DNA of 64,000 nucleotides from a virus (IMGVR_UViG_3300012925_000001), one strand, 5' to 3'; positions 3,530-54,222 are shown, counted from the stretch's first letter. A program made the numbers and translations. The notes: a model not told the origin generated them from the letters alone.

Positions 3530-3668
3530 CCATTGACGTACAATCGCGTAACAGGCTTGCGGTTGAGCAAGTGGCAATCTAGCCACCAACTTACAAGCTA
3601 CCAACCAACAGAGGCAATGCAAGCGAGCGACATCGTTCGCGGGCCAATCCTCAGATAAGGTGGATCAC

Positions 3669-21194: not shown

Positions 21195-21212
21195 CCTAAG
21201 GAGAATACGAAG

Positions 21213-21578
21213 ATGACGAAGAATCTGACCAACATGGCCCTTGCACTAGCATTGGCCACTACTACTTGCATCCACGCACAGACCGCTAAGCCAGCAGCTC
21301 CAGCCGCCACGCCAGCTCCTATGCCAATCACCATCCCCGCAGACTCCTTCAAGGAACTGAACTACTACATCCTTCAGGCCGAGAACCTCGACCTCAAGGC
21401 CAAGCAAACCCACGCTGACATCGACAAACAAGTAGCACAACAAATGCAGCAGATCCAAGCGCAGGCTAGCCCAATAATCGAAAAACTACGCAAGGATCTG
21501 AAAGTGCCTGCCAACTTCGTGCTTGACCAGACTAAGCAGGCGTTTGTTCCTCCACCACCAGCGTCCGCACACAACTAA
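21213..21578 (+). CDS. secreted/periplasmic coiled-coil protein (signal peptide)
   Basis: AAGGAG before ATG; MTKNLTNMALALALATTTCIHA|QT signal-peptide-like start; Gln-rich helical remainder. Confidence 0.65.
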   Translation: MTKNLTNMALALALATTTCIHAQTAKPAAPAATPAPMPITIPADSFKELNYYILQAENLDLKAKQTHADIDKQVAQQMQQIQAQASPIIEKLRKDLKVPANFVLDQTKQAFVPPPPASAHN

Positions 21579-21595
21579 GGGAGCTTATCTCAGCC

Positions 21596-21943
21596 ATGAC
21601 CATCGCCCAACAAAATCTCGACCTAGCTCTATCGCTCTTGACTGACATGTCTATGGCTGACCTGGAGACCTTGCTCCGCCACACCAAAACCGAACTGAGC
21701 TACAAGAAATCCCTACGCGTCTGCAAGCTCTGCTCGGCGCACTTTCAGCGCATCCATCAGGCTCAGAAATACTGTAGCCTAGCTTGCGTTGAAAAAGTCA
21801 TGCAGCAGGGTAAAAACGACTGGTGGCGTAAGCACGGAACTGAGTGGCGGGATCAAGTCCGTACGCCAGAACAGAAAGAACGACTGCAAGTCAAACGTGC
21901 TACTCGGGCCACGCTCAAACAAATAGAAGGGATGATCGACTAG
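21596..21943 (+). CDS. zinc-ribbon protein (CKLC ... QKYCSLAC)
   Basis: Cys4 motif parallel to 10012..10311. Confidence 0.65.
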   Translation: MTIAQQNLDLALSLLTDMSMADLETLLRHTKTELSYKKSLRVCKLCSAHFQRIHQAQKYCSLACVEKVMQQGKNDWWRKHGTEWRDQVRTPEQKERLQVKRATRATLKQIEGMID

Positions 21944-21945
21944 CT

Positions 21946-35428: not shown

Positions 35429-35517
35429 CAGCCGCGGCCCGCACAACTTTCCATCAACACTCAAGCCGTGCTAACGTAGACGGCCTAGCCCTTGTACGTT
35501 TGAAAGCTGACCTGCTT

Positions 35518-38500
35518 ATGTATCGGACCAAACCTTCGTCTTGTGGATCTTGCGTGTTGTGTTCTCATGGCAACGACTTCAGTCAACCTGAAGGTTTGGG
35601 TTTGCTGGGGGTTGCTATCGTCGGTGAAGCATCAGGCGAGAAGGAACAGAAGGATCTCCTGCCATTCCGTCCTTATGCGCCTGCAGGCATGGTGCTCGAA
35701 CGGTCGCTACGTAGGCTAGGCTACACACGCGATCAGTTCGCTATCACTAACATCATTCGCTGCAGGCCGATTGATAATTTGCTCGATGGCATGTACTACG
35801 AGCAGGAAGCTATCAGGCAGTGCTCGGCTAACCTCAAAGCATTCCTGACCAAGTTCCAGCCTAAGGTTGTCGTAGCATTAGGTAATGTAGCTTTCCGCAC
35901 GCTCACCGGCATCTCAGGCGAGAAGCGCACGATTAGTCATATGCGTGGCTATGTATTCCGCGCGCTGCCGGAGTTCTGCGAGGCGGCAGGCATCAAGGAT
36001 CTGCTGGTCGTGCCAACGTACCACCCTTCGTTCATTCGGCGCGGCAGCACACATCTCATGGGCGTGTTTTGCCGAGACATTCAACGCGCTGTCAACATCC
36101 GCACAGGAAAAGATAAGTCGTTCATTCTCGACCTACCTGATTTCGCTGGAGCCGAGATCAAATGGATTGAGAACCCTGATAACAACGAACCGTTCGGGTC
36201 ACCTCCGCCAGAGTTCTATCAGCAGATTGCTGAGACATGGCTAGCGAAATATAACCTGCGCTACCAACTCAAGCCGAACCTGCGCGACCTAGACATCTTC
36301 TGCCGAGACATCAAAGCCAAGTCAGAAGCTTATGCAGCACAAACCCCAGACATGAAAGCAGCGGATCTGCTGGCGCTGTCGTGGGATCTAGAAACACACG
36401 AGTCCGACTCACTCGACGAAGATGCAAGCGATGGCTACACGAACACCGAGATCAGGTTGTTTCAAGCTAGCATTCAACCCGGCACCGGCATCGCCATGCC
36501 CTGGGAAGGGAACTACATTCACGCTGCCCGGTTCTTGATGAAGCTCGCGCTGCCTAAAGTCGGACACAACTCCTGGCTGTTCGATCAAAAGGTAATGCGA
36601 GCTGTCGGTGAGCGTGATTTTGGTAGCCGCGCCAACCTCCAACTGAGCGGTGTTAGTCATGATACGATGCAGATGTTTCATTACTGGCAGCCGGATCTGC
36701 CCGCGCATCTGCAGTATGCCTCGTCGTTCACGCAGTTCCCTTTCCCATGGAAGCATTTCAATGGCTCCAATCTAGAGCTATACGGCATTGCTGACGTAGA
36801 CGCAGCTTTACGGCTGTATATCGTCATGCGCAAAACAATGGAAGACCGTCAGATCTGGTTTGACAATGAAAACCCGCAGCGTCAGGCAGCTGGTTACTTA
36901 GCGATGGTACAAGACGTGCGGCCGATTCTTGCTGACATGGAAGACCGTGGCCTGCCTGTAGACGATGAGCGGCGGATAGCTCTCGATAAGGATTTTGAAG
37001 AAGTCCAAACCGAGTTGATGGTTTACCTGGATGATAAGTTTCCCGATGAGGCCCGGAAGCTGACTCCCAAAGAAGGTTATAAAGGAATGCCTGCGCGGGT
37101 AAAGGAGTTGTTGGAAGAGCTACGGCCTACCATGATCCCTGAAGTCGAAGGCGTGAAGCCTGGCAAGGCTCCGACGAAGAAGGCAATAGCCGAAGCGAGC
37201 AAGATAGCATTCGCATCACGTTACGCGAGTCTACAACCTGATGAATGGGAACTGATCCGCTCAACTAAATTCTTTGATCCACCGACCAAGAACGAAGAAG
37301 GCGAAGAAGAGCCTGGCGAAAGTTATTTCTTCGACCAGCGTGTGTTTGGGCAACAACAACTGGACAACGGATTGAAAACTGAAGGCAAAACTCTCTGGTG
37401 CCGTGTCTATCAGTTCTCTCCGAACTCATCACAACAGCTCATGAACTACATGCGGTTCCGTGGGCATAAAGTCCCGACTAAGAAAGGCGGCGGCGAAACC
37501 ACAAACAAGACAGAACTAGTCAGGCTGAGCTCGAAGCACGGCGACGATTTCTATACGAAGGTGATCGAGTGCCGGGAACTGGGCAAGATGCGCGGAACCT
37601 ATATCGAAGGCTTCAAGCCGCATGCTGATGGCAGAGTACATTCCACTTTTACGTTTGACACGGCAACAATGCAGTTGAGTTCACGCAATCCAAATACGCA
37701 GAACGCGCCGAAGCATGGCAGGCTTGCTAAGGCCGTCAGGTCGATGATCCGGCATCCTGGCACTAAGCAGATGGTTGAGTGGGATTTCAAGGCTTATCAC
37801 GTGCTCACTACAGGATTCGAAGCTCAGTCAGCAAATTATATGCGCTTGGCTCGGCTAGACATGCACAGCTTCGTAGCCGGCCACTTCAACAAGAACTGGA
37901 ATGCATTCAACTTGTTTTCGGAGTCTGACGAAGAGTTGCTGGCGAAATTCAAATGGTTCAAGTCTGACGATGCGCGGAAGGTGATCCGGGATAAGAAAGC
38001 CAAGCCGAGTATCTTAGGCATTGGCTTTGGTCTAGGCGTAAAGAAGCTCTATGATATGAACCGCGAGTCGTTCGCTAATCTCAAGGAAGCTGAAAACCTG
38101 ATGAACCTGATCAAGGATCTGTTTCCTGAGGTTTTCAGGTGGCAGAATCAGATTAGGGAGCTGGCGCATAAGCAACAGTTTCTGCGTAACCGGTTTGGAG
38201 CGATACGTTGGTTGTATGAGGTTTATACACCGGACGGTCGCGGTGGCTGGGCTCCCGGCGAGCAGTCTGAACAGGCGATTGCGTTCTTGCCGGCTAGTTC
38301 GGCATTCGGAAACATCCGAGAATGCATGAAGGCGATGGACAGGAAAGGGTTGCTGGAAAAGTGGGAGATGGTCAACACTGTGCATGACTCGTTTGTGTTT
38401 CTGGTTGAGCCGGAGTTGATGCCACAGCATATCGCTGAGATGTATCCTGTGCTGAATGCTCCGAGTAAGGTATTGATCGATCCAGTATTGGCACCAGAAG

Positions 38501-38595
38501 GGTTGCAAGTTGATGTTGAGTGCTCAGTTGGAGCTACCTGGGCTGACCTGAAAGAGATCAAGATTCCGCAGGAGGTTTTAGCCTCATCGGTTTAG
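35518..38595 (+). CDS. family A DNA polymerase with N-terminal UDG-like (family 4-type) domain and 3'-5' exonuclease
   Basis: N-term CGSCVLC, GEASGEKE, TYHPSFIRR (UDG-like); Exo I SWDLETH, Exo II HNSWLFDQ, Exo III YGIADVDA; Pol A motif A EWDFKAYH, B KAKPSILGIGFGLG, C VHDSFVF. Start ATG 35518 or TTG 35500. Confidence 0.88.
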   Translation: MYRTKPSSCGSCVLCSHGNDFSQPEGLGLLGVAIVGEASGEKEQKDLLPFRPYAPAGMVLERSLRRLGYTRDQFAITNIIRCRPIDNLLDGMYYEQEAIRQCSANLKAFLTKFQPKVVVALGNVAFRTLTGISGEKRTISHMRGYVFRALPEFCEAAGIKDLLVVPTYHPSFIRRGSTHLMGVFCRDIQRAVNIRTGKDKSFILDLPDFAGAEIKWIENPDNNEPFGSPPPEFYQQIAETWLAKYNLRYQLKPNLRDLDIFCRDIKAKSEAYAAQTPDMKAADLLALSWDLETHESDSLDEDASDGYTNTEIRLFQASIQPGTGIAMPWEGNYIHAARFLMKLALPKVGHNSWLFDQKVMRAVGERDFGSRANLQLSGVSHDTMQMFHYWQPDLPAHLQYASSFTQFPFPWKHFNGSNLELYGIADVDAALRLYIVMRKTMEDRQIWFDNENPQRQAAGYLAMVQDVRPILADMEDRGLPVDDERRIALDKDFEEVQTELMVYLDDKFPDEARKLTPKEGYKGMPARVKELLEELRPTMIPEVEGVKPGKAPTKKAIAEASKIAFASRYASLQPDEWELIRSTKFFDPPTKNEEGEEEPGESYFFDQRVFGQQQLDNGLKTEGKTLWCRVYQFSPNSSQQLMNYMRFRGHKVPTKKGGGETTNKTELVRLSSKHGDDFYTKVIECRELGKMRGTYIEGFKPHADGRVHSTFTFDTATMQLSSRNPNTQNAPKHGRLAKAVRSMIRHPGTKQMVEWDFKAYHVLTTGFEAQSANYMRLARLDMHSFVAGHFNKNWNAFNLFSESDEELLAKFKWFKSDDARKVIRDKKAKPSILGIGFGLGVKKLYDMNRESFANLKEAENLMNLIKDLFPEVFRWQNQIRELAHKQQFLRNRFGAIRWLYEVYTPDGRGGWAPGEQSEQAIAFLPASSAFGNIRECMKAMDRKGLLEKWEMVNTVHDSFVFLVEPELMPQHIAEMYPVLNAPSKVLIDPVLAPEGLQVDVECSVGATWADLKEIKIPQEVLASSV

Positions 38596-40351: not shown

Positions 40352-40881
40352 ACAGTAGGCGGAGCTGGTGGCAGTGGAGCTATTGGCGGCTTGGGCAGCT
40401 CAGCAGCGATCGCCGCAGCCACAGCAGGCGGTGCCTGAGCGACTGTAGTCGTTGTAGTGACCAACGAGCCGTCTGGAGCGTGTTGCGTCGTCTGGCTAGC
40501 CACCAGCGCCTTCCAGGCGGCCTTAGTACGAGGATTCCTGATCCAGGCATAGAACGCAGCCGTCGTCAGTCCGATCTCTTTGAGCCAGTGCGGCAGGATC
40601 GACCAGATCCAATCGAACATGTGAGTGAACGGTGGAAAGAATGTATAGCCGAAACCGCAGCCGAGGATGGCTACGGTGCCGACGTGCGTAAACCCACCGT
40701 GAGTTGTGACCCAGGTCTTGATCCACAGCAGATGCTTGGTCAGGAAGGTTTTGAAGGATGACGCGGTTGCGGCTACAGCGATAGCCGTAGCTGGGATCGT
40801 CGTGGTCGTGGTGATGGTTTCAACGGTCACAGGCGTTGGCGTAGCGGCAGCAGGCAGGGAAGACTTCACTTCATCAGGCAT
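40348..40881 (-). CDS. multi-pass membrane protein, holin candidate
   Basis: GGAGG 6 nt before ATG 40881; overlaps endolysin stop by 8 nt; several hydrophobic helices (GTVAILGCGFGYTFF..., IGLTTAAFYAW). Confidence 0.55.
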   Translation of the reverse strand: MPDEVKSSLPAAATPTPVTVETITTTTTIPATAIAVAATASSFKTFLTKHLLWIKTWVTTHGGFTHVGTVAILGCGFGYTFFPPFTHMFDWIWSILPHWLKEIGLTTAAFYAWIRNPRTKAAWKALVASQTTQHAPDGSLVTTTTTVAQAPPAVAAAIAAELPKPPIAPLPPAPPTV

Positions 40882-41488
40882 TTGGTACCTCCAGAGGTGC
40901 AACAATGGATGCATCTAGAAACTCATTCTTGGTCCATAAGTTACGCTCAGCGAACCCTTTATCGTTGACGTTCCGAGCGCATTGTTGGGATGCGGTCAGC
41001 CAGTCCCGCTTAGCCACAGCAGCATTGAACAAGGGGTACTTAGGCGGCGCAAGCTTGACCGGGCCGAGGTTGTACCGCATGTCGATCAGCGCGATCTTGG
41101 CCGGATCCGGCATGGAGTCGTAGCCTGGATAGATCCGCCTGAGATCCGTCTCGCAGGAGTTGACCTGGCTGACCAATAACCTATGCTGCTCCACATCCGG
41201 CAGCAGTGGGCTCGTAGCTGACTTATAGAACTTAGCCCCGAACTGCTGGCCATAAGGCATGCCTCGGACCCTGGCATAGTCATTCTCTATTTCTGCGGGA
41301 GTCGCCGGCCGGCTGCCGTCGGGAGACATGAACTTGAGATTGAGTGCAGCCAGCGCTGACACAACCTGCAGGCCGATAGCGGTTGTCACCCAGCCTTTGA
41401 TGTCAAGGTACAGCCAGGCTATCGGTGTCTCCCAGTTAGTCAGCCAGTGATAGCTCTCGTCCAAGTACGTCGGCGTAGGCGTTGCCAT
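40874..41488 (-). CDS. endolysin, T4-type (GH24-like) lysozyme
   Basis: NWETPIAWLYLDIKGWVTTAIG reproduces the E-x8-D-x5-T catalytic spacing of T4 lysozyme; later ALIDMRYNLG. Confidence 0.75.
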   Translation of the reverse strand: MATPTPTYLDESYHWLTNWETPIAWLYLDIKGWVTTAIGLQVVSALAALNLKFMSPDGSRPATPAEIENDYARVRGMPYGQQFGAKFYKSATSPLLPDVEQHRLLVSQVNSCETDLRRIYPGYDSMPDPAKIALIDMRYNLGPVKLAPPKYPLFNAAVAKRDWLTASQQCARNVNDKGFAERNLWTKNEFLDASIVAPLEVPNA

Positions 41489-42711: not shown

Positions 42712-44094
42712 TTAGGTGCCACATAGCTCCACGTAAATTATGGCTGTGGTCGTAAGCGGGACAAGCGAGGAAGCTCCGAGGAGGAGAATGCCAGTGCCGG
42801 ACACGACTTTGCCGGATATCGTGCTGCCGGATAGCGGGTTCACGATAGCGACGTACTGGTCTGTAGCGTTGGTTGTGGCGGGCGAGATCGGCATTACGTG
42901 GATCGAGCGGACTGTGGTGATCCCAGCCGCGCCGAAACTCATCGTCCAAGTACCGGTAGAGGTCGTCGTAAAAGCTCCCGACTGGAAGCATTTCATGTTG
43001 GCTATCGCGCCGGCTGAGTTGTAGTAAAGGACTCCAGCCGGGCCAGTTACGCCTGCCGGACCAATAGCGCCAACCGGGCCGACTGCACCTACAGCGCCTT
43101 GAATGCCTTGAGGGCCAACTGCGCCAGCCGGGCCGGTTAGGCCTTGAGTTCCTGTAGCTCCTACGGGACCGATGCTACCGGTGGCTCCTGTGGGTCCGGC
43201 TGGGCCAACACCACCGGTAGCCCCGTTTGCACCCGTAGCTCCCACAGCCCCGGTATTGCCATTTGGTCCGGTGTTCCCGGTAGGACCTTGGGGGCCAGCC
43301 GCGCCTGTGGGTCCTGCGCTGCCAGTGAGGCCAGTTGGTCCTGTAGCGCCTGTAGGTCCACTGGGTCCAGTACTACCAACACTGCCCTGTGGACCTGTAG
43401 GCCCTGTACTCCCCGTGAGGCCGATGGGCCCGACAGCACCTGTAGCTCCAGTTGAACCGTTAGGACCTGTGGCACCTTGCACCCCCTGAGGGCCGACGGA
43501 GCCTGTTGCTCCGGTTGGCCCAGCCGGACCAGTAGGCCCAGCTGACGTAAGTTGATTCGCTTGAATGAATGATATCCAGGCGGCCGAGTCAGCGCAACCG
43601 GGCGTGATCAGATGGCCGACATAGCCGGGGGTGAGAATGTTGGTCAATCCATTCGTAGGCGAGTTGACACTAATGATCCGGCCAGAGGTAGGAGTTGTGC
43701 AAGGGATGTCTAAGAGTGAAGTAAAGCCGGATGAGTGAAGGGTACCGGGCGTAGTTGTGCTGGCTATAGCAATCTCGTTTAGTACTGGTGTGTTGTCGAA
43801 CAACGTCGGAGCCGAGCCGTAGATCGCCATGTAAACGAAGTCACCGGGGTTGCCTCCCTGGAGGATTATGCCACTAATCGATCCAGTCCCAGGATACGGA
43901 ATAACACAGAAGATCGGAGCACAGGGAACGTTCTGAACGACTTCGCCGGCGATTAGAGCGGTACTGCCGCTAGCAATGCGAACCGCAGTCAGGGATTGCT
44001 GGGTTGAGGCTGGAACTGTAAAACCGAGAGCAAGGCAAAGAAGTGAAGCAAGATAGAGCTTAGAATAGACCGTCACAGTGATACCCCACGACAA
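42712..44094 (-). CDS. collagen-like tail fibre protein with signal-peptide-like N-terminus
   Basis: 56 uninterrupted G-X-Y triplets (aa 186-353); N-terminus [21 protein letters not shown]|TQQ. Confidence 0.85.
43036..43539 (-). repeat. collagen-like (G-X-Y)56 coding repeat
   Basis: Hand-counted 56 consecutive Gly-X-Y triplets; causes spurious ORFs in other frames and on the opposite strand. Confidence 0.9.
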
Positions 44095-44935
44095 CAGCAG
44101 AGCCGGTTATGGCTGTGCCCACTTCAGCCTGGATTGTTGTTGCTGTGACTATGGGAACGATGAGGCCGACGTTCCCTACAGTGGTTGCTGAGAGGGTTTG
44201 CGTGGAGACAAAGCAGACACGCGTGTGCGCGCCGCCGAGGAAGGTGTAGGTAGGTGAATCGGTCTGGCCGGTGGCTATAGTGAGCTGGCCGGCTACGTCG
44301 GAGTTGGAGGGAGTTCCAGTGCGCAGAATCGGAGCTATGTTCTGGGTGGCGGTTTCGGCTGCGAAGGTGGCATTGACTGGTGTAGTCGCACCGATGATGG
44401 TGTTGTTGATAGATCCGCCAGTGATCGTGGCAGCGGGCGTGGTTAGCGAGGTTGTCGAGATTGAGGTCATGCCGGTTATGCTGCCGCCGGTGAATGCTGG
44501 GACTGCAGTAAAAGCTGGAACTGCAGTACCGGCTGTGTTGTTCATGAAGACGGAGCGTGCGGCCTGAGGTGTTAGCGTAAACGAGGTGAACGGAGTTGAA
44601 GTAGGGTTTGAGGTGGCAGTAGTGAACAGCGGCGGCAGGTTGCCTGCGGTCACGTTGGTCACTGTGCCTGGGTTGCCGCCTTGGGCTGTGCCGTCCCATG
44701 GGACCCATCTAGCCAGAGTGTTGTTGTAGAAGAAAAGAGCTGTTGGGGTTGGGGTGTAGGTGACCGCACCGACTGTGGCTGTGCCGAGCAGTGGAGTCCA
44801 ACCGGAGCCTGTATTGACATAAGCCGCTGCGCTAGAAGGCGTAACCTGAGCAGCACATCGCCCTACGAACATAAGCATCGATATCGGACAGAGAAGAGAG
44901 CAAAAGTGAAGCAAGTAGTGCGTTGGCTTGAACAT
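44060..44935 (-). CDS. tail fibre/adaptor-like protein (shares N-domain with the 1199-aa spike)
   Basis: [16 protein letters not shown]...WVPWDG...[17 protein letters not shown] parallels 45541..49140; hydrophobic N-terminus ...[10 protein letters not shown]|QV. Confidence 0.75.
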
Positions 44936-44953
44936 GGCCGTTTACCCCTGGAA

Positions 44954-44978
44954 GGGTACCTGCGACATACAGGTACCC
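44954..44978. other. perfect 9-bp stem hairpin
   Basis: GGGTACCTG 44954-44962, loop CGACATA, CAGGTACCC 44970-44978; in the 151-nt gap between two late genes. Confidence 0.8.
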
Positions 44979-45086
44979 AACTAGGTTATCCGGTCTAAAT
45001 ATCGCACGTAATTTGGAACGTGGCACCAGAAACTACTGGAGCTACATCGGTGCGTGTTGAAAAGTTGAGCGCGGCGGTTGCGTTCA

Positions 45087-45530
45087 TTAGGGGTTTAGAT
45101 CAATTTCCCATAAGGACTCTATTACGCCTACAAAGACGTATCCCGTTGTAGTAGGACCGCTAGGAACTATCGAGAGGGAAAGTCCATCAACATTGCTATG
45201 TAGATAAAATGTGAAATTGACCGAAGCCAATCCAGCCTCTAAATCAGCATTCTGCGTACCTTGGCTTGCGGGTGTGGCCCTAGAACTTGCCTGTGCTATG
45301 TGCACAGGTCCTCCATCAATACCATCTCCCCGCGTTCCATTATTATCAGTAAATACAGCTAAAAGATCAAAGGTTACGTCAGGTAGCGCTATATCTTGAA
45401 CCGCAATGGAAAGATACCCACTAAGTCGATATAACCCTGCATTGGGAGTTGAGAAGACTATGCTTCCATCTGCAGGGTTCTGAGGTAAACGAATATTAGC
45501 GATAATGACCGGTATTGGTGCTTGAGGCAT
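45087..45530 (-). CDS. hypothetical protein (low-GC gene between fibre genes)
   Basis: 147 aa; my hand counts of three 60-nt lines give about 40-48% GC versus about 55-63% nearby. Confidence 0.65.
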   Translation of the reverse strand: MPQAPIPVIIANIRLPQNPADGSIVFSTPNAGLYRLSGYLSIAVQDIALPDVTFDLLAVFTDNNGTRGDGIDGGPVHIAQASSRATPASQGTQNADLEAGLASVNFTFYLHSNVDGLSLSIVPSGPTTTGYVFVGVIESLWEIDLNP

Positions 45531-45540
45531 TTTAATCTCC

Positions 45541-48500
45541 TTAGTTAGGCGTGCACATTACGTTGTAAATTGCCCCTGCGGTCGCTGCCGACGCAAACGT
45601 AAGCGTTGGTAAATTCGTTGTTGGTACCGTGACGAAAGGTGCATTGGTCGTATTGAGCGTGACCGCAATAGCGTTCGCTGGGAATGCAACGCAAACTCCT
45701 GTCGTTGTCGTTCCTGTAGCCGAGCAGTTCGCTGTCGTTGCTGTTGATGTTGAAGCAACGCAGCGAGTTACTGGGAATACTCCGACTCCACCTTTTTGCA
45801 GCACCGAGGTAAAGTTCAAAGTGCTGAATGTCTGAGTACCCTGGAATGACTGATTAGCATTCAAAGATGCCAATGTGCCAGGGTTCAAGAGTTGCCAGGT
45901 GCCACTACCGGCACTGTTATAAACCACTACAGCTATAGAGTTGATTACTAAGTCGCCTGCAACGACAGCCACATTGCCAAGTTTAGTGATAACCTTTGCT
46001 CCAAGGCTATTTACGTTGAGTGTTGGCGTGCCCGTAGTGTTTGTGGCTACTGGAATGAAGGTAAGAATCTCTCCAGCACTCAAAGCCGTGACAGAGGTGT
46101 TTGCGACGACTGCGGCGTTTACCAAGCCGGTGTCGTTGACTGGGGTGTCTTGTAGTGATGGCATGATCTGGATGCCAGTGAAGGTATTGGCTGCGAGCCC
46201 TGCACCGCCCCCACCTGAACCTGTAGCTGTTATCAAACCGCCAGCGCAGGTTGTGGTCGTTCCGTCGCATTGCAGGATGCCTGCGGTGGTGTTACCGCCC
46301 ACTGGCAGATTAGCTATAGGCAATACTCCCGTGACATCAGCTGAAGCTAAGTTGACTGCTCGCGCCGCACCGTCTTGTGCACCTGCTGTAACATGCTCAA
46401 AACCCGTGCCCGTTGGAACCGTTCCGCCAGTAGCATTGACGCCGACAATACTTGTTCCGTCATAGCCAACCAACTGACCAGTTGTCGGAGGTGTAGCACT
46501 AACTGGTATATTCCAGATCGAGGTTGCGTTGCCTGAACTTCCACTTCCACCGCCAGAGAATCCGAACTGTTCCCAATGAGCGCCGGCTGCGATAGCTGCT
46601 TGGCCGGTAGCTAAGCCTGGTGTAGCTCCCAGTACAGACTTCAGCAAGCACTTAGTAGCATTGGCACACACTAAAGTTGGATTGCCGTCGATGTTCTCGC
46701 CTGAAGCTGCAGTCAACGTTACAGTGTTCGTGCCTGAAGTCTGCACGTTCGAGAAGTACCGATCAGTCCCGATTAGTCCGACCGCGCTCGGCAGCGTTAT
46801 GTTCTGCGTCGTGCTCGTTGGGTTTGTGTTGACGGCCGTGTCACCCACCGGGTTCGTATAGGTCGCTGACGTGACCAAGATCGGGTTAGTGCCATTCGTC
46901 TTAGCATCAGCCCAGTTCAGATAGTTAGCGACATAGGTAGCGATGATCTGCTGTGCTGGAGTTGCTGGATGAACACCATCGGCTTGAAAGCAAGCTGCTC
47001 CCGCACAAACCAAGGTTGGATTGGCAAACGCGCCGTCAGCGCCTAAGCCTGGAAAGCTAGCGATGTCGATCAGGCCATCGGCTCCGGCATAATCTTGCCG
47101 GACTAATGCATTGAACTGATTCTTCAGAGTGTCTAGAGCTACACCACCGTTGCCGTTGCCAGTGCGACTAATCATAGTCATAACAAAAACGCGAGGCTGG
47201 TGTGGACCAGACTTGTAACATTGCACGAGTCTGCGCAGCCGCTGATACGTCACAACCGGCGTTGCCGTAGTTCCTATCCCAAGATCATTTGTTCCACCCC
47301 AAATGACTATAGTAGAACCGCTATTGGGATTCATCGAACCATAGCCCCGCGACTGACATTCTTGAATCATATTTTGTATCTGCCAGCTTGCGGTTCCGAT
47401 GTTGTTCGCGGAGCCAGGCAGCCCTGCTGTCACAGGAATATACGGCGTGTTCGTTGGCGCGTTTACAGTCGAAACCATTCTTGGCCAAGGAGTCGCGGTG
47501 TTGATGGCAACAGTGATCGAGTCGCCCACATATAGAACTTGGTTACCCGCATCAACGTAGTTAGTCGGAGTTTTTATGATGCCGCGGAACTGCGCATAGG
47601 ATTGCGCGGAACCTGCGAGAGTCTGGATTTCAGCCGCAGTCAAAGCACGGTTGAAGACAAAGCTGAAGTAAACCGGATAGGGAAATGCGAAGGCCGCGTT
47701 AGGAAGCGTTGCGTAATGAGGCATGCCTAATGATAGGCTGCCTGTGGCCGGGGTCTGGGCTACAGTGCCAGTGCCTTGCGCAAAATAGCTCGACACTTCA
47801 CTACCGTCTATAAACAGTTGGTCATTGGTCGTGCCGCGCCGCCAGCTGATCAGATGGCAACCGTCAGTAGACTGCGCTCCAATTGTGGGAGCTGCCGTCC
47901 CGTTATAGACAGCTGGCGTTGTATCATATTTGCCTACGCCTACTACGTTAGCCAACACAGTGCTGTTTACTGAGTTCATCATCAAACCGAAAGCCTGGAG
48001 ATTGGTGAACGTAGGAGTTGTAGAGCTTATCAAGCCCCCGACTAGCAATGGAAGCGTAGCGCTAGTGGCAGCCAATGCGTTCAAGCATACGTAATTGGAT
48101 ATGGTAACTGCAGTTGTGTTGAAAGAGTTTGGGTAATCCATACCACCCGCACCCGCAGACGTCATACCACCGAGTACCGTGCCTGTGAGTGTCGGTGTGC
48201 CGAAGTAGGTTCCGTTGTTGCCAAGGCCTGAGTAGTCGATGCCTGTAGTCGCGCCGGAAGCTTCTGTGAGATGATACTCACCGATCAAGCCGTTGGTGTT
48301 AGCGATCGGGCTGATACGACTGGACGAAGCAAACTGCCCAGTAGGGACGGTTCCATTGAACGTTGGAGCTGTTACGTTCCCAACAAAAGTCGCAGCACCT
48401 GTACCGTCATCAAATGTATTCCGTAAGCCTACGAGCTTACCGTTCAGATATCCCTGCAGGTCGCATGTTGCTGCCATACCCCATATAGATAAGCACCAAT

Positions 48501-49140
48501 TATTCGTAGCTGTGCTTGCTGTTTGGTTCCAGTTGATCACCATGGAATTGCCGTTAGAGTTAGTCTGACCGTTTACCCAGGCGAGAGATCCTCCAGCAGG
48601 CAGACCCGCGGCTAGGTGAGAGAAACCGTAAGATAAACCAGTAGCAGTCGTGCCATCAGTAATCGACAACGGTCCAGGAAGACTCGAAGTCGAAGTACCG
48701 AGGATGCCTATTGAAGTTACTACAGGTGAAGATGTGTAACTAGGAGTTCCGACAGTTCCAGTTGGGTTTCCTAGCACGGAGTTAGCTGGAGCGTTGGTTA
48801 GGGTAAACGTGAGCGCGGGAGTCGTAGTAGCCGTCGCGACAGATGTGGTGAATAAAGGCGTGAGATTGCTTGCAGAAAAGCTTAGGACCGTGCCTGATCC
48901 GCCTCCGCCCGATGTCCCCGGCCATGGTACCCATTTGCCCAAGCTCGAATTGAACACATACAACGCGGCCGGTGGCGGATTGAACGCCAGCGCTCCCTGA
49001 GTCGCAGTGCCCAGCAACGGCGTCCAGCCTGAGCCGGAGTTTACATAACTCCCAACCGGCGCGGGAGTCTGCGCTGAAGCTGTAGCAGAAATCATCAGTA
49101 TGGCAAGGGCAAGGGCCAGGAAGCGCATAGTAAGTTTCAT
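45541..49140 (-). CDS. tail spike/fibre with LamG-like and SGNH (GDSL) esterase domains
   Basis: AGGAGA 7 nt before ATG 49140; signal-like MKLTMRFLALALAILMISATASA|QT; LIGEYHLTEASGATTGIDYSGLGNNG (LamG-like); SGNH blocks VGDSIT, WGGTNDLG, ADGVHP. Confidence 0.85.
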   Translation of the reverse strand: MKLTMRFLALALAILMISATASAQTPAPVGSYVNSGSGWTPLLGTATQGALAFNPPPAALYVFNSSLGKWVPWPGTSGGGGSGTVLSFSASNLTPLFTTSVATATTTPALTFTLTNAPANSVLGNPTGTVGTPSYTSSPVVTSIGILGTSTSSLPGPLSITDGTTATGLSYGFSHLAAGLPAGGSLAWVNGQTNSNGNSMVINWNQTASTATNNWCLSIWGMAATCDLQGYLNGKLVGLRNTFDDGTGAATFVGNVTAPTFNGTVPTGQFASSSRISPIANTNGLIGEYHLTEASGATTGIDYSGLGNNGTYFGTPTLTGTVLGGMTSAGAGGMDYPNSFNTTAVTISNYVCLNALAATSATLPLLVGGLISSTTPTFTNLQAFGLMMNSVNSTVLANVVGVGKYDTTPAVYNGTAAPTIGAQSTDGCHLISWRRGTTNDQLFIDGSEVSSYFAQGTGTVAQTPATGSLSLGMPHYATLPNAAFAFPYPVYFSFVFNRALTAAEIQTLAGSAQSYAQFRGIIKTPTNYVDAGNQVLYVGDSITVAINTATPWPRMVSTVNAPTNTPYIPVTAGLPGSANNIGTASWQIQNMIQECQSRGYGSMNPNSGSTIVIWGGTNDLGIGTTATPVVTYQRLRRLVQCYKSGPHQPRVFVMTMISRTGNGNGGVALDTLKNQFNALVRQDYAGADGLIDIASFPGLGADGAFANPTLVCAGAACFQADGVHPATPAQQIIATYVANYLNWADAKTNGTNPILVTSATYTNPVGDTAVNTNPTSTTQNITLPSAVGLIGTDRYFSNVQTSGTNTVTLTAASGENIDGNPTLVCANATKCLLKSVLGATPGLATGQAAIAAGAHWEQFGFSGGGSGSSGNATSIWNIPVSATPPTTGQLVGYDGTSIVGVNATGGTVPTGTGFEHVTAGAQDGAARAVNLASADVTGVLPIANLPVGGNTTAGILQCDGTTTTCAGGLITATGSGGGGAGLAANTFTGIQIMPSLQDTPVNDTGLVNAAVVANTSVTALSAGEILTFIPVATNTTGTPTLNVNSLGAKVITKLGNVAVVAGDLVINSIAVVVYNSAGSGTWQLLNPGTLASLNANQSFQGTQTFSTLNFTSVLQKGGVGVFPVTRCVASTSTATTANCSATGTTTTGVCVAFPANAIAVTLNTTNAPFVTVPTTNLPTLTFASAATAGAIYNVMCTPN

Positions 49141-49179
49141 CGTCAGGTCTCCTAAATTTGATTGCAGCAGTGCTGCCAA

Positions 49180-50685
49180 CTACCAGGTGCATAGATATTT
49201 CACAGTCAGAATCGCGCCAGGGGTATTCGCCGAAGCGTTGACTAAGTTGAAAGTCAGCGTCGTGGTCGAGCTGCCTGATACGACTACGTCAATCCCAGCA
49301 TAGTTGTTGGCGTCAGTCCGGCCTGTAGCCATACACAACATGCTGGCAGGCGGAACGTAAATAGGATTTCCAGAACCATTGAACGTTATGGAACCTAAGG
49401 CTCCAACGCCTCCGGCCGAGCTGAACTGAGAGTTCCATGTGCCGGCGTTGGTTCTGCAGGTGCTGCTAAAAGCAGTTGGATTGCAGTTGAGGCCTGATTG
49501 CAGAAGAGTGGTGTTGGTTACTGTGGCTCCAGCTTGCAGAGCAGTGCCGCCGCCGAATAGGCCAGGTGCAGCCACGTTTCCTGTAGGAGCAAACGTAACG
49601 GCGTTCGGCACAGGACTGGAGCCGGCAGAAGCGATGGTCAAAGTTCCCGCATTGCCATAGGTGATAGACAAGCTGTCAGGTGTGCCTGTGGTGTACGTGA
49701 GGCCTACGTTGACTCCTGTTCCGCAGATGCCGTTGAACGTCAAGCAGCCGATTGAGGTGCTGCTCGGGAACGAAGTTATCTTGATGTTGTGTCCTGGACC
49801 AGCAGCGAGCGTGTCTGTCGTAGTCGTGCCTATGACGTTGATGCTATTGTTGAAGAATTGGAACGGCACAAAGGTGTTGGCCACGTCGGTGTAGGCGATT
49901 GAGGTTGGCAGGTTTATACGAGGCACGCGTGTCGTGTTGTCGAGCGGAGCGTAGCCATTGGGCTGGCCTTTCTGGCTGAGTGGCTGAGCAGCATTAGCGA
50001 TCGAGAGAGCTAGGTTGGCCTGGGTCTGTGCTGTAGAGGCTGCCAACAGCGCCGAGTTCACGCCCGTGTCAACGTAGTTCTTGTCTGAGGCTTGTAGGGG
50101 TGAGATAGGATCGCCGGGCAGGACGAGCGCGCCAGTCATTGTGTCGCCCGAACGGTTCACCTTGCCGTTCCAGTTGGTCTGATCTGCTGACGTAGGTAGG
50201 TAGAAACCAGGAGCCGTGGCTACTGAGATAGCGGGAGTCGTTGTTGGGTTCGTTACAGACACCAGGAAGCCATTGGCTTGAATGCCGGAGACGCTGGTAA
50301 CTGTGCCGCCGGCTCCGCCTGAACCTGCGCCGGCTGAGACAGAGTAGGAATAAGTCAAGCCAGTCTGCGGCGTTATTTGTACAAGGTACAAGCCCGAGGC
50401 CAGGAAGAATGAGTAGTTACCGTATTGGTCTGTAGCTTGCGGGTTGAGTATAGGCACGTTGAAGTTCGCATCGGCGTAGAGCTGCACGCCTGAGATCAAG
50501 CAAGGGTTGCCTATGGAGAACACGTTGCAGACACGAATAACTGCGTTTGCTGCCGGCTGACCGCCAGGTGAGACGATCTGTCCTGAGATCGCTGCGGCAT
50601 TTGGTGCCTGCGCGTGCAGAGCTGCGGTCAACGCCAGGCTCGTGATCGTGGCTAGAATTCTACGTACTAGAGTCAGGGCAGTCAT
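49180..50685 (-). CDS. tail fibre protein (carboxypeptidase-regulatory-like N-domain, SGDTMTG fibre motif)
   Basis: MTALTLVRRILATITSLALTAALHA|QA; ISGQIVSPGGQPAANAVIRV...TDQYGNYSFFLASGLYLVQITP; NRSGDTMTGALVLPG...DKNYVD. Confidence 0.8.
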   Translation of the reverse strand: MTALTLVRRILATITSLALTAALHAQAPNAAAISGQIVSPGGQPAANAVIRVCNVFSIGNPCLISGVQLYADANFNVPILNPQATDQYGNYSFFLASGLYLVQITPQTGLTYSYSVSAGAGSGGAGGTVTSVSGIQANGFLVSVTNPTTTPAISVATAPGFYLPTSADQTNWNGKVNRSGDTMTGALVLPGDPISPLQASDKNYVDTGVNSALLAASTAQTQANLALSIANAAQPLSQKGQPNGYAPLDNTTRVPRINLPTSIAYTDVANTFVPFQFFNNSINVIGTTTTDTLAAGPGHNIKITSFPSSTSIGCLTFNGICGTGVNVGLTYTTGTPDSLSITYGNAGTLTIASAGSSPVPNAVTFAPTGNVAAPGLFGGGTALQAGATVTNTTLLQSGLNCNPTAFSSTCRTNAGTWNSQFSSAGGVGALGSITFNGSGNPIYVPPASMLCMATGRTDANNYAGIDVVVSGSSTTTLTFNLVNASANTPGAILTVKYLCTW

Positions 50686-50702
50686 AGCAGATCTCTCGCT
50701 TT

Positions 50703-53348
50703 CTACGGCGTTGTACTCAACAGCATGTAAAGTGTTATGCCACTAATTGTTATAGGAAACGATCGGTTAGCTACAGCTGTGGAACCTGCGATTCCAGCAG
50801 CATTGATCGAAAGAGGTTTGCTGAGATTCAGAGTTCCATCCTGCTGAATATCGGGGCCAAGCTGGCCATTATTGACAAAAAATTGCATTGTCTTTAGGGC
50901 GTTGAATTCTAGCCTGTTTGGAAAATTAACCGTGTCTACAGCTACACCGTTGAAATTGCCAGAACCCAGGTTCCCGCAACCTGTTGAGATCGTCAAACAC
51001 AAAGAATCTAGGCCAGCAGAACCTCCAGGGACTAGACCTATTTGTGTAGTGCCTGTCCCCGCAAACACAGATCCTGAAGTGTTCAATTGAGTTGCATTGA
51101 TGCCCCCGTTTACTGTAAATATCCCATTGGGGAACATGGTCACCCAAGTTGTACCTAGAGTTGAGAAATTCAATATTCCCGCCGGGGTACTTTGCAGCTG
51201 CCAGTCGTTGACCCCTGAGGCAGTTCCTCGAATGCTTATTGACGTTCCAGCCGCATTTGAACTTGAGAATATGGTATTTACTATAGCCGAGTTGAAGTTA
51301 GTCCAAGAACCGATTCCAGTATTGGTGGAGACCGCTGTGATCCCAGTGGCTTGACCACCTGAAGCTTGTAAGAACGGTGTTCCAACTGATTGAGCATCAT
51401 TCAGGAATCGCAGGAAGAAAGACCCGTTCAACCACAGCGAATCAGCTATATGATTATTGGTTGTTCTAGACTGGTCGTAGTAGACCACTTCCGCGCCCAC
51501 GCCGGGATTGCCGACTAACGCCACACCAGTATTCGTGATGCTTGCAGGCGTGAAGTTGGCAGTAGCGTTTACTGTTCCCGCGGCTGTGATGTTTCCAGTG
51601 GCTGTGATTGTTGTACTAGCAATGATGTTTGGTGTGGTCGTGCCAATAGGCCCAGGCGCGAGCAGAGCGTTGTTGATTCGGGCTGCCGCAATATTACCGG
51701 TAGTGATGTTAGCTCCGTTGATCGCTGTGATACCGGAGCCTGGTCCGACGAAGCCTGTAGAGGCTGTGATCGTAGTACCGCCAAGCGTAGTAAACGTTCC
51801 AGCTGCGGGCGTGGTGCCTCCAATAACGGTCCCGTTTATGGTTCCACCAGTGATTGCAGCAACTGGGAACCGTGCTGGAGCAAGCGTGCCTGAGGAGATG
51901 TTCGAAGCGTTGAGCGCAGTCAGCTGTGATCCGTCGCCAGTGAAGCCTGGGCTGGCTGTAGTTGAGACATTCCCGGTTGCTGTGATCGCGCCGGTAGAGA
52001 TCGAGCCGGAGGTTAGCAAGTTGGCGATGGTTGCGGTAGTGGCAGTGGCGAGGCCGGTGACTGAGATACCTGCTCCGAAGTTCTGGCCAACCGTGAAATT
52101 GTTGATGACGTCCGTATAGGCGATGTCCGGTGGGAGTTGTGCTTGCAGGATGTGGCCACCAGCGTCCAGCCCAGCATAACCATTAGGCTGATTCTTCTGG
52201 TTCGAGGGTTGGGCAGCATTGGCCACAGTCAGTGCAGTGTTGGCCGTCGATAAGGCGTTCGAGGCCACAGCCAGCACCGAAGCGTCCCCATTGTCCACGT
52301 AGAGTTTGTTCGCGGCCTGTGTGTTGGTCGTAGGCTGACCGGACAGGTTCAGCGGCCCGGTCATTGTATCGCCGGAGCGATTGACCTTGGCATTCCAGTT
52401 GGTTTGGTCGCCAGTGGTTGGCAGGTAGAAGCCTGCGGACGTAGCTACAGAAATCTGCGGCGTTGTGGAACCAAAAGCTACAGATACCGTAAAGCCGTTA
52501 GCGGTGGTGCCCGTGACGTTCGTGACCGTGCCGCCACCGATCGGGACCTTGGTGAACAAGCCTGTGGTGGCATCGTAGGCGACTAAGGCCTGACCTGCGG
52601 TCTGTGTGATCGACTGTGGGAACACGCCGGGTGAGCCACCGCCAAAGCCGCCAGCTGCCCAAGCGTAGGAGTAGGTTATGCCTGTCTGCGGCGTCACCTG
52701 GATCAGGTACAGGCCAATGTTCGTGAAGAAGGAATAGTTCCCGTATTGGTCGGCGGATTGAGGATTCGCGATCGGCACAGTCAGCTGCGAGTCGGCATAC
52801 AACGAGACTCCAGTGGTCGGACAGGGAGAGCCGAATGCAGTTACGCGGCAGACCCGCACGAGTGCACCAGATGCTGGCTGACCGCCGGGCGAAACAACCT
52901 GACCTGACACGGCTGAAGCATTCGAAGACTGAGCTGTAGTGATAGGCGTGAACGCTAGGCAGCACAGCATCACGACCATAGCCGTGACAACTGTTACCAG
53001 GTTCAGCTTAGCGCGCGAATTCTGTCGATGCCATTCTGTCATGCAAGCTTTGTGGACCAGGTAGTTCAGCTTTTTGCCGCCACCTGAATGTAGTTGGTCG
53101 TCACGTAGCTGGCCTGTTGGCTCCCAGTTGCCGCCGGTCATGCGCGACTCCTCGATGCCGATCCGGCCGCCGTTCGGGCAGGAGTCTAGAGCGCACTGGC
53201 CCTGTTGCTCAGCCCACAAGAGTTGCTTGCGCCGGATGTATTCAGCCCGACCGGGTGGATTATTCAAACAGATCTCTCGACCGTCATCGTAGCGGCGAGT
53301 CGCAGGCTCCTGTGGTGCCTGTCTAAACCTTTTGCGCATATACCGCAT
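50703..53348 (-). CDS. tail fibre protein, paralog of 49180..50685, with in-frame 102-aa N-terminal extension
   Basis: Same N-domain and NRSGDTMTGPLNLSG...NKLYVD; FTGDGSQLTALNASNISSGTL fibre repeat; a canonical signal-like start begins at internal ATG 53042 (MTEWHRQNSRAKLNLVTVVTAMVVMLCCLAFTPITTA|QS). Confidence 0.8.
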   Translation of the reverse strand: MRYMRKRFRQAPQEPATRRYDDGREICLNNPPGRAEYIRRKQLLWAEQQGQCALDSCPNGGRIGIEESRMTGGNWEPTGQLRDDQLHSGGGKKLNYLVHKACMTEWHRQNSRAKLNLVTVVTAMVVMLCCLAFTPITTAQSSNASAVSGQVVSPGGQPASGALVRVCRVTAFGSPCPTTGVSLYADSQLTVPIANPQSADQYGNYSFFTNIGLYLIQVTPQTGITYSYAWAAGGFGGGSPGVFPQSITQTAGQALVAYDATTGLFTKVPIGGGTVTNVTGTTANGFTVSVAFGSTTPQISVATSAGFYLPTTGDQTNWNAKVNRSGDTMTGPLNLSGQPTTNTQAANKLYVDNGDASVLAVASNALSTANTALTVANAAQPSNQKNQPNGYAGLDAGGHILQAQLPPDIAYTDVINNFTVGQNFGAGISVTGLATATTATIANLLTSGSISTGAITATGNVSTTASPGFTGDGSQLTALNASNISSGTLAPARFPVAAITGGTINGTVIGGTTPAAGTFTTLGGTTITASTGFVGPGSGITAINGANITTGNIAAARINNALLAPGPIGTTTPNIIASTTITATGNITAAGTVNATANFTPASITNTGVALVGNPGVGAEVVYYDQSRTTNNHIADSLWLNGSFFLRFLNDAQSVGTPFLQASGGQATGITAVSTNTGIGSWTNFNSAIVNTIFSSSNAAGTSISIRGTASGVNDWQLQSTPAGILNFSTLGTTWVTMFPNGIFTVNGGINATQLNTSGSVFAGTGTTQIGLVPGGSAGLDSLCLTISTGCGNLGSGNFNGVAVDTVNFPNRLEFNALKTMQFFVNNGQLGPDIQQDGTLNLSKPLSINAAGIAGSTAVANRSFPITISGITLYMLLSTTP

Positions 53349-54222
53349 TGATAGCCTCCAGGGATTGCCTGATTTTGGTCGTAAGATCCTGCGTGTGATG
53401 TGCGGCTGTAGTCAGTGGCGCAGCGCCGGTAGCGATTCGCTCGGCTTGTTCCTCAGGAGACTCGGAAGCTACGTTAGCTGACCAAGGCTGGTTAGCTGGC
53501 CATAGCTCAGCGAGAGAAGTTATCTGCTGCTGCAAGGCAGCTATCTCAGCGCGGAGCTGAGCCTCGCGTTCAGCAGCGCCCAGAGCATAGTCCAGAGTAG
53601 CTGCGTTCGTGGTCAGGTTCTGCTGCTTGCGCAAGACTTGCATGCGGTCATCCAGGCGCTGCTTCTGAGTAACCGGCACCTTGATATCCATGATCACGCG
53701 AGGCTCGACCAAGGCCTTAGGTGAGGCTTGCTGGTTGCGTTGCTCGACCAACAACGCAAACTTGCGCATCGGCAGCGCACGAGCTTCCTGGAGCCAGGCG
53801 TATTCGGCCCAGACGTTAGGATGGATCCGAGTCAGCAGCCTAGCAGCTTCAACGGTCACCGTACTCATCTGGTCCATAGTCAGCCCGTCAAGGCGCTCGC
53901 CAAGGACCATATAAGTCCCCCACATGGACTGACTGAGGCCGAGGTCTTCCCGAGCTGCGTCTTCGTCGACGAAGCCAAGTTCCTGCCAGGCTTGACGTTG
54001 GCGTAGCTTCCAGCCGTAGAAGGCGATCTCGACCAGGGAGTTGCGGAGCTTAGTCGCCGCTGACCGCACCTTACTAAACATCTCAGGCGACGACAGTTCG
54101 CCGCTGGCCATGATCTGCGGCTGCGGCTGGATTGGGAATTTTGTGGGGACAAGACTGGGCCGCCCCTGATTTGCAACCTGAGCGGCTAGACTGGATGTGC
54201 GGACTGAATCGTTGGAGGCCAT
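53323..54222 (-). CDS. hypothetical protein, possible ParB/KorB-like HTH
   Basis: 299 aa; WQELGFVDEDAAREDLGLSQSMWGTYMVLGERL resembles ParB-type HTH; coiled-coil C-terminus; call is tentative. Confidence 0.6.
   Translation of the reverse strand: MASNDSVRTSSLAAQVANQGRPSLVPTKFPIQPQPQIMASGELSSPEMFSKVRSAATKLRNSLVEIAFYGWKLRQRQAWQELGFVDEDAAREDLGLSQSMWGTYMVLGERLDGLTMDQMSTVTVEAARLLTRIHPNVWAEYAWLQEARALPMRKFALLVEQRNQQASPKALVEPRVIMDIKVPVTQKQRLDDRMQVLRKQQNLTTNAATLDYALGAAEREAQLRAEIAALQQQITSLAELWPANQPWSANVASESPEEQAERIATGAAPLTTAAHHTQDLTTKIRQSLEAINAVYAQKV

Follow-up and report, generated by a model that had tools for sequence, protein, structure and literature searches.

The 64,000-nucleotide viral stretch IMGVR_UViG_3300012925_000001 (hereafter the window) contains, between positions 42712 and 53348, five adjacent genes for fibre- or spike-like proteins, g1 to g5. 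Judged from sequence, these proteins very probably carry genuine Sec signals, which would entail cleavage by signal peptidase I and oxidative folding in the periplasm. We base the export reading on the architecture of the signals, their conservation within the clade of the window phage and in cultured phages, Gln at position +1 after the predicted cleavage site, and the parity of cysteine counts. We slightly favour, with low certainty (probability roughly 0.45), the whole chain of events in which the exported proteins also join virions at lysis. Fibre and spike proteins would be translocated by Sec into the periplasm of a diderm host, probably a member of the Acidobacteriota, cleaved just ahead of a Gln that may cyclise to pyroglutamate, and folded there with all Cys in disulfides. 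The exported proteins would remain the receptor-binding fibres and spikes of the phage and would not meet the fibre-less particles built in the cytoplasm until the lysis system brings the two compartments together; the fibres would then attach spontaneously as the last step.

The five open reading frames (ORFs) reported by the first-pass annotation are all present on the minus strand:

42712..44094, minus strand: g1, 460 amino acids (aa), signal-like N-terminus, unassigned domain, 57 G-X-Y triplets, ~105-aa C-terminal tip
44060..44935, minus strand: g2, 291-aa fibre-like protein, start at 44935, post-signal N-module in common with g3
45541..49140, minus strand: g3, 1199 aa, signal, g2-type N-module, LamG-like region, SGNH esterase, repeats, Cys-rich tip
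49180..50685, minus strand: g4, 501-aa fibre, signal, CarboxypepD_reg-like domain, GDTMTG..YVD repeat, Cys-rich tip
50703..53348, minus strand: g5, 881-aa fusion, Cys/His N-domain, internal signal, CarboxypepD_reg-like domain, long fibre

Their presequences are as follows (arrow, predicted cleavage):

44002..44094, minus strand: g1 presequence, aa 1-31, then ↓QQ; the weakest of the five, hydrophobic core 2.54
44849..44935, minus strand: g2 signal peptide, aa 1-29, ..FVGRCAA↓QV
49072..49140, minus strand: g3 signal peptide, aa 1-23, MKLTMRFLALALAILMISATASA↓QT
50611..50685, minus strand: g4 signal peptide, aa 1-25, MTALTLVRRILATITSLALTAALHA↓QA (..LTAALHA↓QA)
52932..53012, minus strand: g5 internal signal or signal-anchor, aa 113-139, ..AKLNLVTVVTAMVVMLCCLAFTPITTA↓QS (TTA↓QS)

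Signal Architecture and Start Sites

Signals were called throughout with our own hydrophobicity and cleavage heuristics and by reading the sequences by eye. The earlier proposal that these N-termini are Sec-type signals is strongly supported, and an artefact is argued against by conservation in homologues and related phages, by Gln at +1 and by the even number of Cys in the mature parts. A crude scan of ~86 window ORFs flagged g1 to g4 as an adjacent run; the other flagged ORFs were few and mainly small and membrane-type. Basic residues are found in the n-regions of g1 (K12, or K6 from GTG), g2 (K3), g3 (K2/R6) and g4 (R8/R9), and R108, R112 and K114 lie ahead of the hydrophobic core of g5. 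The protein at L018:11094 (MEQW..), from a related phage contig, is an exception to the basic n-region. The best 10-residue Kyte-Doolittle means of the h-regions are 2.2-3.2 in g1 to g4, and the hydrophobic core of g5, with 22 residues, is at the long end of the h-region range. Positions -3 and -1 are small and uncharged (ASA↓Q, LHA↓Q, TTA↓Q, CAA↓Q), a pattern that recurs in ~30 related proteins; the g1 site is ambiguous and could be VPA↓ST or AST↓QQ. Gln stands at +1 in 22 of 22 sites of the window clade and in 10 of 11 sites of the cultured Tunturi phages, figures inflated by the choice of sites by eye, partly for Gln. A heuristic blind to +1, applied to g3 homologues, places Gln at this position in 36 of 77.

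Other kinds of sorting signal were considered and rejected. Reading of g1 to g5 revealed no lipobox ([LVI][ASTVI][GAS]C), which argues against lipoprotein signals; a chromosomal homologue of g3 in Terriglobus has ..FLEGC. A twin-arginine (Tat) signal for the set is disfavoured as the RR pair occurs in g4 only (LVRRILA), being missing from its homologue P0002 and from the other proteins. The n-region of g4 (50611-50685, minus strand) combines this twin arginine with the least hydrophobic core of the set, and g4 may be exported by Tat; the signal of P0002 is plainly Sec-type. Sorting by PEP-CTERM or the type IX secretion system was discarded, since such C-termini were not seen on reading and had no Pfam match.

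Wrongly assigned start codons were likewise rejected: no in-frame start separates the signals from the conserved domains, and alignments with homologues continue across the signal. The g3 start is ATG 49140, preceded by an AGGAG ribosome-binding site, and g4 has no alternative start ahead of its conserved domain. The start of g1 is either TTG 44094 or GTG 44076, and the hydrophobic core is retained from both. In-frame Met codons within the hydrophobic cores of g2, g3 and g5 would permit two isoforms, a long exported one and a short cytoplasmic one initiated near the end of the signal, with the latter supplying the virion. We consider this very improbable, as none of these Met codons has a ribosome-binding site, the codon is absent from g1, g4 and most homologues, and Met is common in the cores of signal peptides.

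Conservation Among Related Phages

Alignment with homologues had been proposed as a check on the N-terminal segment, and it indicates conservation: the signal is kept while the sequence of its core drifts. P0002, the closest homologue of g4, starts MKKLIQLAFLITFSSLCYA↓QN, and P0011 starts ...CLPFLHA↓QS. When g4, g5, P0010 and P0011 are aligned, the cores differ and the Ala-Gln junction is invariant. For g3, a full-library search returned 1498 relatives; most of the best 150 representatives open with a classic signal that ends in a small residue plus Gln, and crude detectors find a signal in 77/141 and 71/141 g3 representatives. Residues A23/Q24 of g3 are at least 90% conserved in an 18-sequence alignment.

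Furthermore, every large gene of the fibre block in four related phage contigs has a signal. The signal proteins measure 1286, 815 and 851 aa in L009; 635 and 1074 aa in L018, where a holin-like gene and a lysozyme follow directly; 612, 257, 1118, 147 and 801 aa in L019; and 704, 133 and 980 aa in L014. The window phage itself has a sixth signal protein (L006:462-1520, ...GSAHA↓QS).

Cultured Phages and the Probable Host

Among 50,697 phage genomes, g3 matches only gp342 from Tunturiibacter phage Tunturi_5 (a 'tail fiber protein' by annotation only), and among 185,579 species genomes it matches only a LamG+SGNH lipoprotein encoded on the chromosome of a Terriglobus metagenome-assembled genome (MAG). 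The nozzle-like protein of the window phage is distantly related to gp32 of phage Tunturi_2 (E=2e-10), and P0002 is distantly related to gp12 of the same phage. Because g3 matches Tunturi_5 and the Terriglobus MAG and the nozzle matches Tunturi_2, the host likely belongs to the Acidobacteriota (Terriglobia). The Terriglobus homologue (L012:5178-7114, MAG CAXUHI010000017) is split into two overlapping ORFs of 397 and 255 aa, possibly by a frameshift or an assembly error, and has a lipoprotein-type start. Its neighbours carry ...HA↓Q signal ends like those of the window proteins, and three of the four signal peptidase I-type signals in this 17-kb locus, an anecdotal sample, end ↓Q. The IHA↓QT context that the first-pass annotation had noted in one unrelated window ORF is also present, as CIHA↓QT:

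21213..21578, plus strand: unrelated 121-aa ORF, ..TTTCIHA↓QT, just below the threshold of the crude scan

The study that isolated and imaged the Tunturi phages (Demina et al. 2025, PMC11924767) makes no reference to signal peptides and contains no virion mass spectrometry. Three of them bear on the present question:

Tunturi_2 (63-kb podovirus): gp12, gp13 'tail fiber', gp14 'pectin lyase', gp16, gp17 'virion structural'; signals present
Tunturi_5 (jumbo myovirus): gp337-gp342, six consecutive genes, three annotated 'tail fiber'; signals present
Tunturi_3 (98-kb podovirus, same host genus): gp7, 15, 18, 20, 24; signal-less, with hydrophilic N-termini

In Tunturi_2, the signal genes lie between the tail protein gene gp11 and the lysis genes; the mature parts of gp12, 13, 14, 16 and 17 have 20, 10, 20, 1 and 34 Cys, and all signals except that of gp14 end ↓Q. 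The corresponding mature Cys counts for gp337-gp342 of Tunturi_5 are 18, 6, 0, 0, 14 and 12. Tunturi_3, with 0, 1, 7, 1 and 0 Cys in the whole proteins of gp7, 15, 18, 20 and 24, served as negative control for the signal criteria. Signals are thus not universal for phages of this host phylum, an idea that we rejected on the strength of Tunturi_3, and since its fibres are signal-less the feature belongs to particular phage lineages rather than being a host-wide necessity.

Cysteine Parity

If all Cys are paired in an oxidising compartment, the mature protein should have an even Cys count, a prediction independent of the signal itself. With cleavage sites chosen by eye, the counts are as follows:

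Window-clade signal proteins: 22 even, 0 odd (counts 0-24; 2-24 in the 20 that contain Cys)
Cys-containing signal proteins including those of the Tunturi phages: 28 even, 1 odd (binomial p≈1e-7)
Non-signal window ORFs of at least 100 aa: 20 even, 27 odd
g3 representatives with recognisable signal and Gln: 60 even, 11 odd
g3 representatives without recognisable signal and Gln: 28 even, 42 odd

In the five window genes, the mature parts hold 6 (g1), 2 (g2), 16 (g3), 8 (g4) and 4 (g5) Cys, with a further 1, 3 and 6 in the presequences of g1, g2 and g5, respectively. Eight window-clade proteins have an odd total and become even solely after the presequence Cys are removed, which supports cleavage at or near the predicted site. 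Moreover, Cys columns are invariant in the alignment of g3 homologues (A3). The neighbouring virion-type proteins have 0 Cys (the 334-, 187-, 715- and 898-aa proteins, g6 and gX) or odd counts, and the Cys-free particle proteins among them fit the contrast with the even-Cys signal proteins. Cys parity is also a cheap check for exported phage proteins that is independent of predictors.

The Internal Signal of g5

The first-pass annotation let all five genes open with a signal and placed the start of g5 at the internal Met 53042. This holds for g1 to g4. At Met 53042 there is no ribosome-binding site, while ATG 53348 has GGAGG; because of this start and because the upstream 112 residues are conserved, the hydrophobic segment of g5 must be regarded as internal. 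The residues ahead of it form a domain of their own:

53013..53348, minus strand: Cys/His N-domain of g5, aa 1-112, with conserved C27, C52, C57, H99, C102 and H107

This domain (~110 aa, basic N-terminus MRxxRKRFRQ) shares 52-62% identity with its counterparts in three other phages in a four-phage alignment (A7; L019:9622-10008, L018:9187-9500, L009:10001-10340). It always directly precedes the first fibre gene: in three phages it is fused ahead of the signal, the g5 architecture being repeated in P0010 (L009) and L018:9187-11094, and in L019 the arrangement is split into two ORFs, with the domain as a separate 128-aa ORF that overlaps the fibre gene by 8 nucleotides. Profile searches with the N-domain against PDB, Pfam and NCBIfam gave nothing, and its AlphaFold2 (AF2) model (predicted local distance difference test, pLDDT, 44) was too poor for a fold search. 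From its sequence and a low-confidence secondary structure, the domain may be a degenerate HNH-like (beta-beta-alpha) zinc domain. If signal peptidase cuts at TTA↓QS, the N-domain would persist as a small protein tethered to the membrane through its C-terminus.

The position of this segment, which in g5 and its homologues follows a domain of 112-170 aa like a type II anchor, and the length of the g5-type hydrophobic stretches (22-25 residues) would suit uncleaved membrane anchors or assembly helices, for example a tether to the inner membrane or a part of a trimeric shaft. For the set we regard this as improbable. The small residues at -3 and -1 and the Gln at +1 persist as the core sequence changes, and in g5 the A↓Q pair is invariant when aligned with the N-terminal signals of g4 and P0011. 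Eight proteins reach Cys parity only after removal of the presequence, and the counterpart fibre in L019 has an ordinary N-terminal signal with the Cys/His domain in a separate ORF.

Fibre and Spike Modules

The collagen-like shaft of g1 matches PF01391 Collagen (E=2e-24), and the PHROG tail-fibre matches of this protein come through the collagen repeat. The repeat comprises 57 uninterrupted G-X-Y triplets (aa 186-356) rather than the 56 counted at first. The tip of g1 is 52% identical to L014:3206-3607 (E=2e-34), where the protein consists of a signal peptide and the tip domain alone. The gene (= L001:16592-17974) is absent from the public gene calls of the contig, which place two other ORFs here, one of 104 aa in an alternative frame within the collagen repeat and one of 78 aa on the opposite strand; in G-X-Y repeats, long ORFs arise in several frames.

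The N-module common to g2 and g3 (44% identity over 165 aa with the AQ junction aligned, E=5e-22) recurs straight after the signal in many homologues. In g3, the catalytic columns support the SGNH domain noted in the first-pass annotation: the blocks VGDSIT, GGTNDL and DGVHP are present, and S541, N618, D721 and H724 are invariant in two homologue alignments (A2 and A3). The GDSL_2 match (E=2e-6) misses the Pfam cut-off (28.8 vs 32.9).

After their signals, g4 and g5 have in common a CarboxypepD_reg-like domain, a weak Pfam match with an invariant Cys pair; in g4 the match (E=3e-4) is below the Pfam cut-off. The g4 protein also matches phrog_1446, minor tail (E=6e-6), and had no match among 50,697 phage genomes; its AF2 monomer model (pLDDT 37) was too poor for a fold search. 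Searches of g2, g3 and g5 gave no PHROG match. The motif SGDTMTGxL...YVD, said to occur twice, is found as GDTMTGxL...YVD once in g4 and once in g5, and FxGDGSxLTxLNASN is present in g5 as FTGDGSQLTALNASN. Such shaft segments also occur in signal-less, ordinary-looking phage fibres.

The C-termini of g1 to g4 (regions at window 42715, 44063, 45544 and 49183), P0002, P0010, P0011 and the L014 proteins share a terminal hydrophobic strand and a Cys placed 3-6 residues before the chain end (e.g., ..VELCGT, ..YHCDGLF, ..VMCTPN, ..KYLCTW, ..KYICSF). This likeness suggests a common type of disulfide-stapled tip domain.

Virion Parts or Free Proteins

A role of the exported proteins in the virion is suggested because the five genes fill the whole fibre slot of a T7-like operon, because no further large candidate for receptor binding is left in L018 and Tunturi_2, and because the paralogues have N-terminal modules in common, as fibre docking domains do. 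We tentatively propose a two-compartment virion, with heads and tails made in the cytoplasm and all fibres exported and added at lysis, as a lineage-spanning habit of Acidobacteriota phages that would include the window clade, Tunturi_1/2 and Tunturi_5.

Several points weigh against fibres that are exported and then join the particle. We know of no tailed phage that exports its fibres, and a protein that has been exported stays separated from the assembly site until the cell lyses. The 334-aa Cys-free protein encoded after the head-tail adaptor has a fibre-like motif and could be a conventional fibre, making the exported set dispensable for the particle. The Terriglobus LamG+SGNH lipoprotein indicates that this module also works as an ordinary cell-envelope protein. 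The signal of g1 is weak and its start uncertain. Finally, the parity counts include paralogues and are partly non-independent, and oxidation after release could contribute in part to the observed parity.

The other main reading, which we consider somewhat less likely, is that the proteins are exported without being virion parts, as free periplasmic or secreted enzymes and adhesins (SGNH esterase, pectin-lyase-fold depolymerases, collagen-like binders). They could strip or mask host exopolysaccharide or the receptor and thereby provide superinfection exclusion, escape of progeny from the matrix or less sticking to debris. The whole evidence for export applies equally here, enzyme-type domains are present, and the compartment problem of exported fibres, the possible conventional fibre of 334 aa and the chromosomal lipoprotein homologue in Terriglobus all fit, as does the CarboxypepD_reg-like domain (a weak match), which is typical of envelope proteins. 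In addition, phages of P. gingivalis encode Q-rule signal-peptide proteins that have been read as host-surface modifiers (PMC10367356). Against free proteins stand the occupation of the entire fibre slot of the T7-like late operon, the lack of another large receptor-binding candidate in L018 and Tunturi_2, and fibre-shaft repeats in common with signal-less phage fibres. The free depolymerases of other phages need no signal, being released by lysis, and no signal for translocation across the outer membrane was detected by Pfam or, for PEP-CTERM, by reading the C-termini.

Among the three explanations offered by the first-pass annotation, a virion or assembly role for the hydrophobic helix is argued against by the evidence, while exported non-virion proteins and a maturation route that has not been described both still stand. 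If the fibres do mature in the periplasm, this would be a new assembly route and could account for the way in which soil phages come by binding proteins that are oxidised and resist proteases. Were they instead free enzymes that are secreted, a large part of the genes annotated as 'tail fibres' in soil viromes would encode secreted factors that remodel the host surface, and host-range prediction from fibre genes would be affected. Cultured pairs (Tunturi_1/2/5 on Tunturiibacter) carry the feature, so both outcomes are open to direct test.

Genomic Context

The window is part of a soil-metagenome contig (ENA ERZ27253145 k141_3592003; 100,879 bp). JGI soil metagenomes contain near-identical pieces, and IMG/VR has a 65-kb contig that represents a variant of this phage; scanning IMG/VR and the JGI metagenomes yielded just near-identical copies of the window phage plus three short fragments. 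The 100-kb contig is not a concatemer of the 65-kb genome, an explanation rejected because its two ends carry different genes.

The source is a tailed phage, as indicated by a DNA polymerase A fused to a uracil-DNA glycosylase (UDG) domain, a Dda-like helicase, a Sak4-like protein, an RNA-repair set and an SU10-type adaptor. The polymerase, whose N-terminal domain belongs to the uracil-DNA-glycosylase superfamily, lies at window 35500-38595 (plus strand), and the same fusion occurs in L018. The RNA-repair module (19178-23022, plus strand) encodes PNKP (kinase and HAD phosphatase), a T4 Rnl1-like RNA ligase and RlaP, with the signal-bearing ORF 21213-21578 and ORF 21596-21943 between the RNA ligase and RlaP; it is probably a counter to tRNA-cleaving defences. 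The early region encodes a DUF932 protein (3660-4736, plus strand; E=1.5e-40), and a small ORF with a signal-like start (82 aa, ..CCIGHG↓QP) is located at 7934-8182 (plus strand).

The late operon on the minus strand follows the T7-type order, and the five genes occupy its fibre slot. It begins with the head-tail adaptor (400 aa), which lies just outside the window and passes the cut-off of the Pfam SU10 adaptor family (PF24175; 31.4 bits vs 27), followed by the 334-aa protein and a 1225-aa nozzle-like protein. The middle consists of Cys-free proteins of 326, 187, 715 and 898 aa, a KTSC-domain protein and g6, and the operon ends with g5, g4, g3, gX, g2, g1, small membrane proteins and a probable lysozyme. 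This order from adaptor to lysis genes recurs in L009 and L018. Three genes flank or interrupt the fibre block:

53323..54222, minus strand: g6, 299-aa Cys-free protein, directly upstream of the first fibre gene in all relatives
45087..45530, minus strand: gX, 147 aa, Cys-free and signal-less, within the fibre block, with a strong ribosome-binding site
40874..41488, minus strand: probable endolysin, 204 aa, just downstream of the fibre block; weak support

The endolysin candidate aligns with T4 lysozyme in pairwise BLASTP (E=0.002) and displays an E-x8-D-x5-T pattern by eye; Pfam, PHROG and PDB searches gave no match, and the syntenic gene of L018 is a Phage_lysozyme (PF00959). By eye, gX resembles three small proteins of L006 (1532-1882, 1907-2248 and 2261-2926; 116, 113 and 221 aa). 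All are Cys-free and signal-less, have similar N-termini (MPxxPxxxVASG..) and adjoin signal-bearing fibre genes, and such small proteins might be chaperones or adaptors. The KTSC-domain gene (PF13619; 54292-54570, minus strand) is kept just upstream of g6 in every related phage and adjoins a divergent gene of 268-301 aa in the window, L009, L018 and L019.

Comparison With Known Systems

Tailed-phage assembly is, in the textbook account, wholly cytoplasmic, and canonical podovirus fibres and tailspikes such as T7 gp17, P22 gp9 and the SGNH-esterase tailspike gp63.1 of phage G7C are signal-less proteins that fold and attach in the cytoplasm. The window genes resemble these in their position, which follows the genes for adaptor, nozzle and internal proteins and precedes those for lysis, and in their fibre repeats, collagen-like shaft, putative esterase or beta-helix domains and N-modules common to paralogues. 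Unlike them, the window proteins have cleavable-type signals and even Cys counts. Cleavable Sec signals are known from the adsorption and coat proteins g3p and g8p of M13, of which g3p is disulfide-bonded in the periplasm before it enters the particle. In this respect the window proteins are similar, but inoviruses are extruded through the envelope, whereas the window derives from a tailed dsDNA phage that exceeds 100 kb and has a probable lysis cassette. SAR (signal-anchor-release) endolysins and spanins are late phage proteins that also use host Sec; these are small lysis proteins, in contrast to the large, fibre-like proteins of the window.

The Gln found at +1 of nearly every predicted site is reminiscent of the Q-rule substrates of signal peptidase I in Bacteroidetes, and phage genes that follow the signal grammar of their host have been noted before (PMC5837995, PMC10367356). 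The present case concerns a different host phylum, outside the scope of that Q-rule work, and the Q-rule genes of P. gingivalis phages were presented as surface modifiers of unknown function and not described as fibre genes (PMC10367356). With its signal peptide, G-X-Y shaft and globular C-terminal domain, g1 resembles the bacterial collagen-like surface proteins Scl1/Scl2, Lcl and BclA; its matches to the NCBIfam models Lcl, SclA and SclB are below the cut-offs and come through the collagen repeat only. Unlike these proteins, g1 is without an LPXTG or other anchor and lies in a phage late operon.

The same feature is seen in the 'tail fiber', 'pectin lyase' and 'virion structural' clusters of Tunturi_1/2 and Tunturi_5, which share signals, Gln at +1 and even Cys counts with the window clade, whereas Tunturi_3 has ordinary fibres. 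In a study of diversity-generating retroelements (DGRs) in Bacteroides phages, the lack of signal peptides was taken to speak for a phage origin (PMC6199706), and in our full-text searches of the literature, signal peptides were nowhere described for the fibres of tailed phages. Taken singly, signal peptides, the Q-rule and phage fibres are familiar; our searches met no report of a tailed phage in which the whole set of fibres and spikes has cleavable signals.

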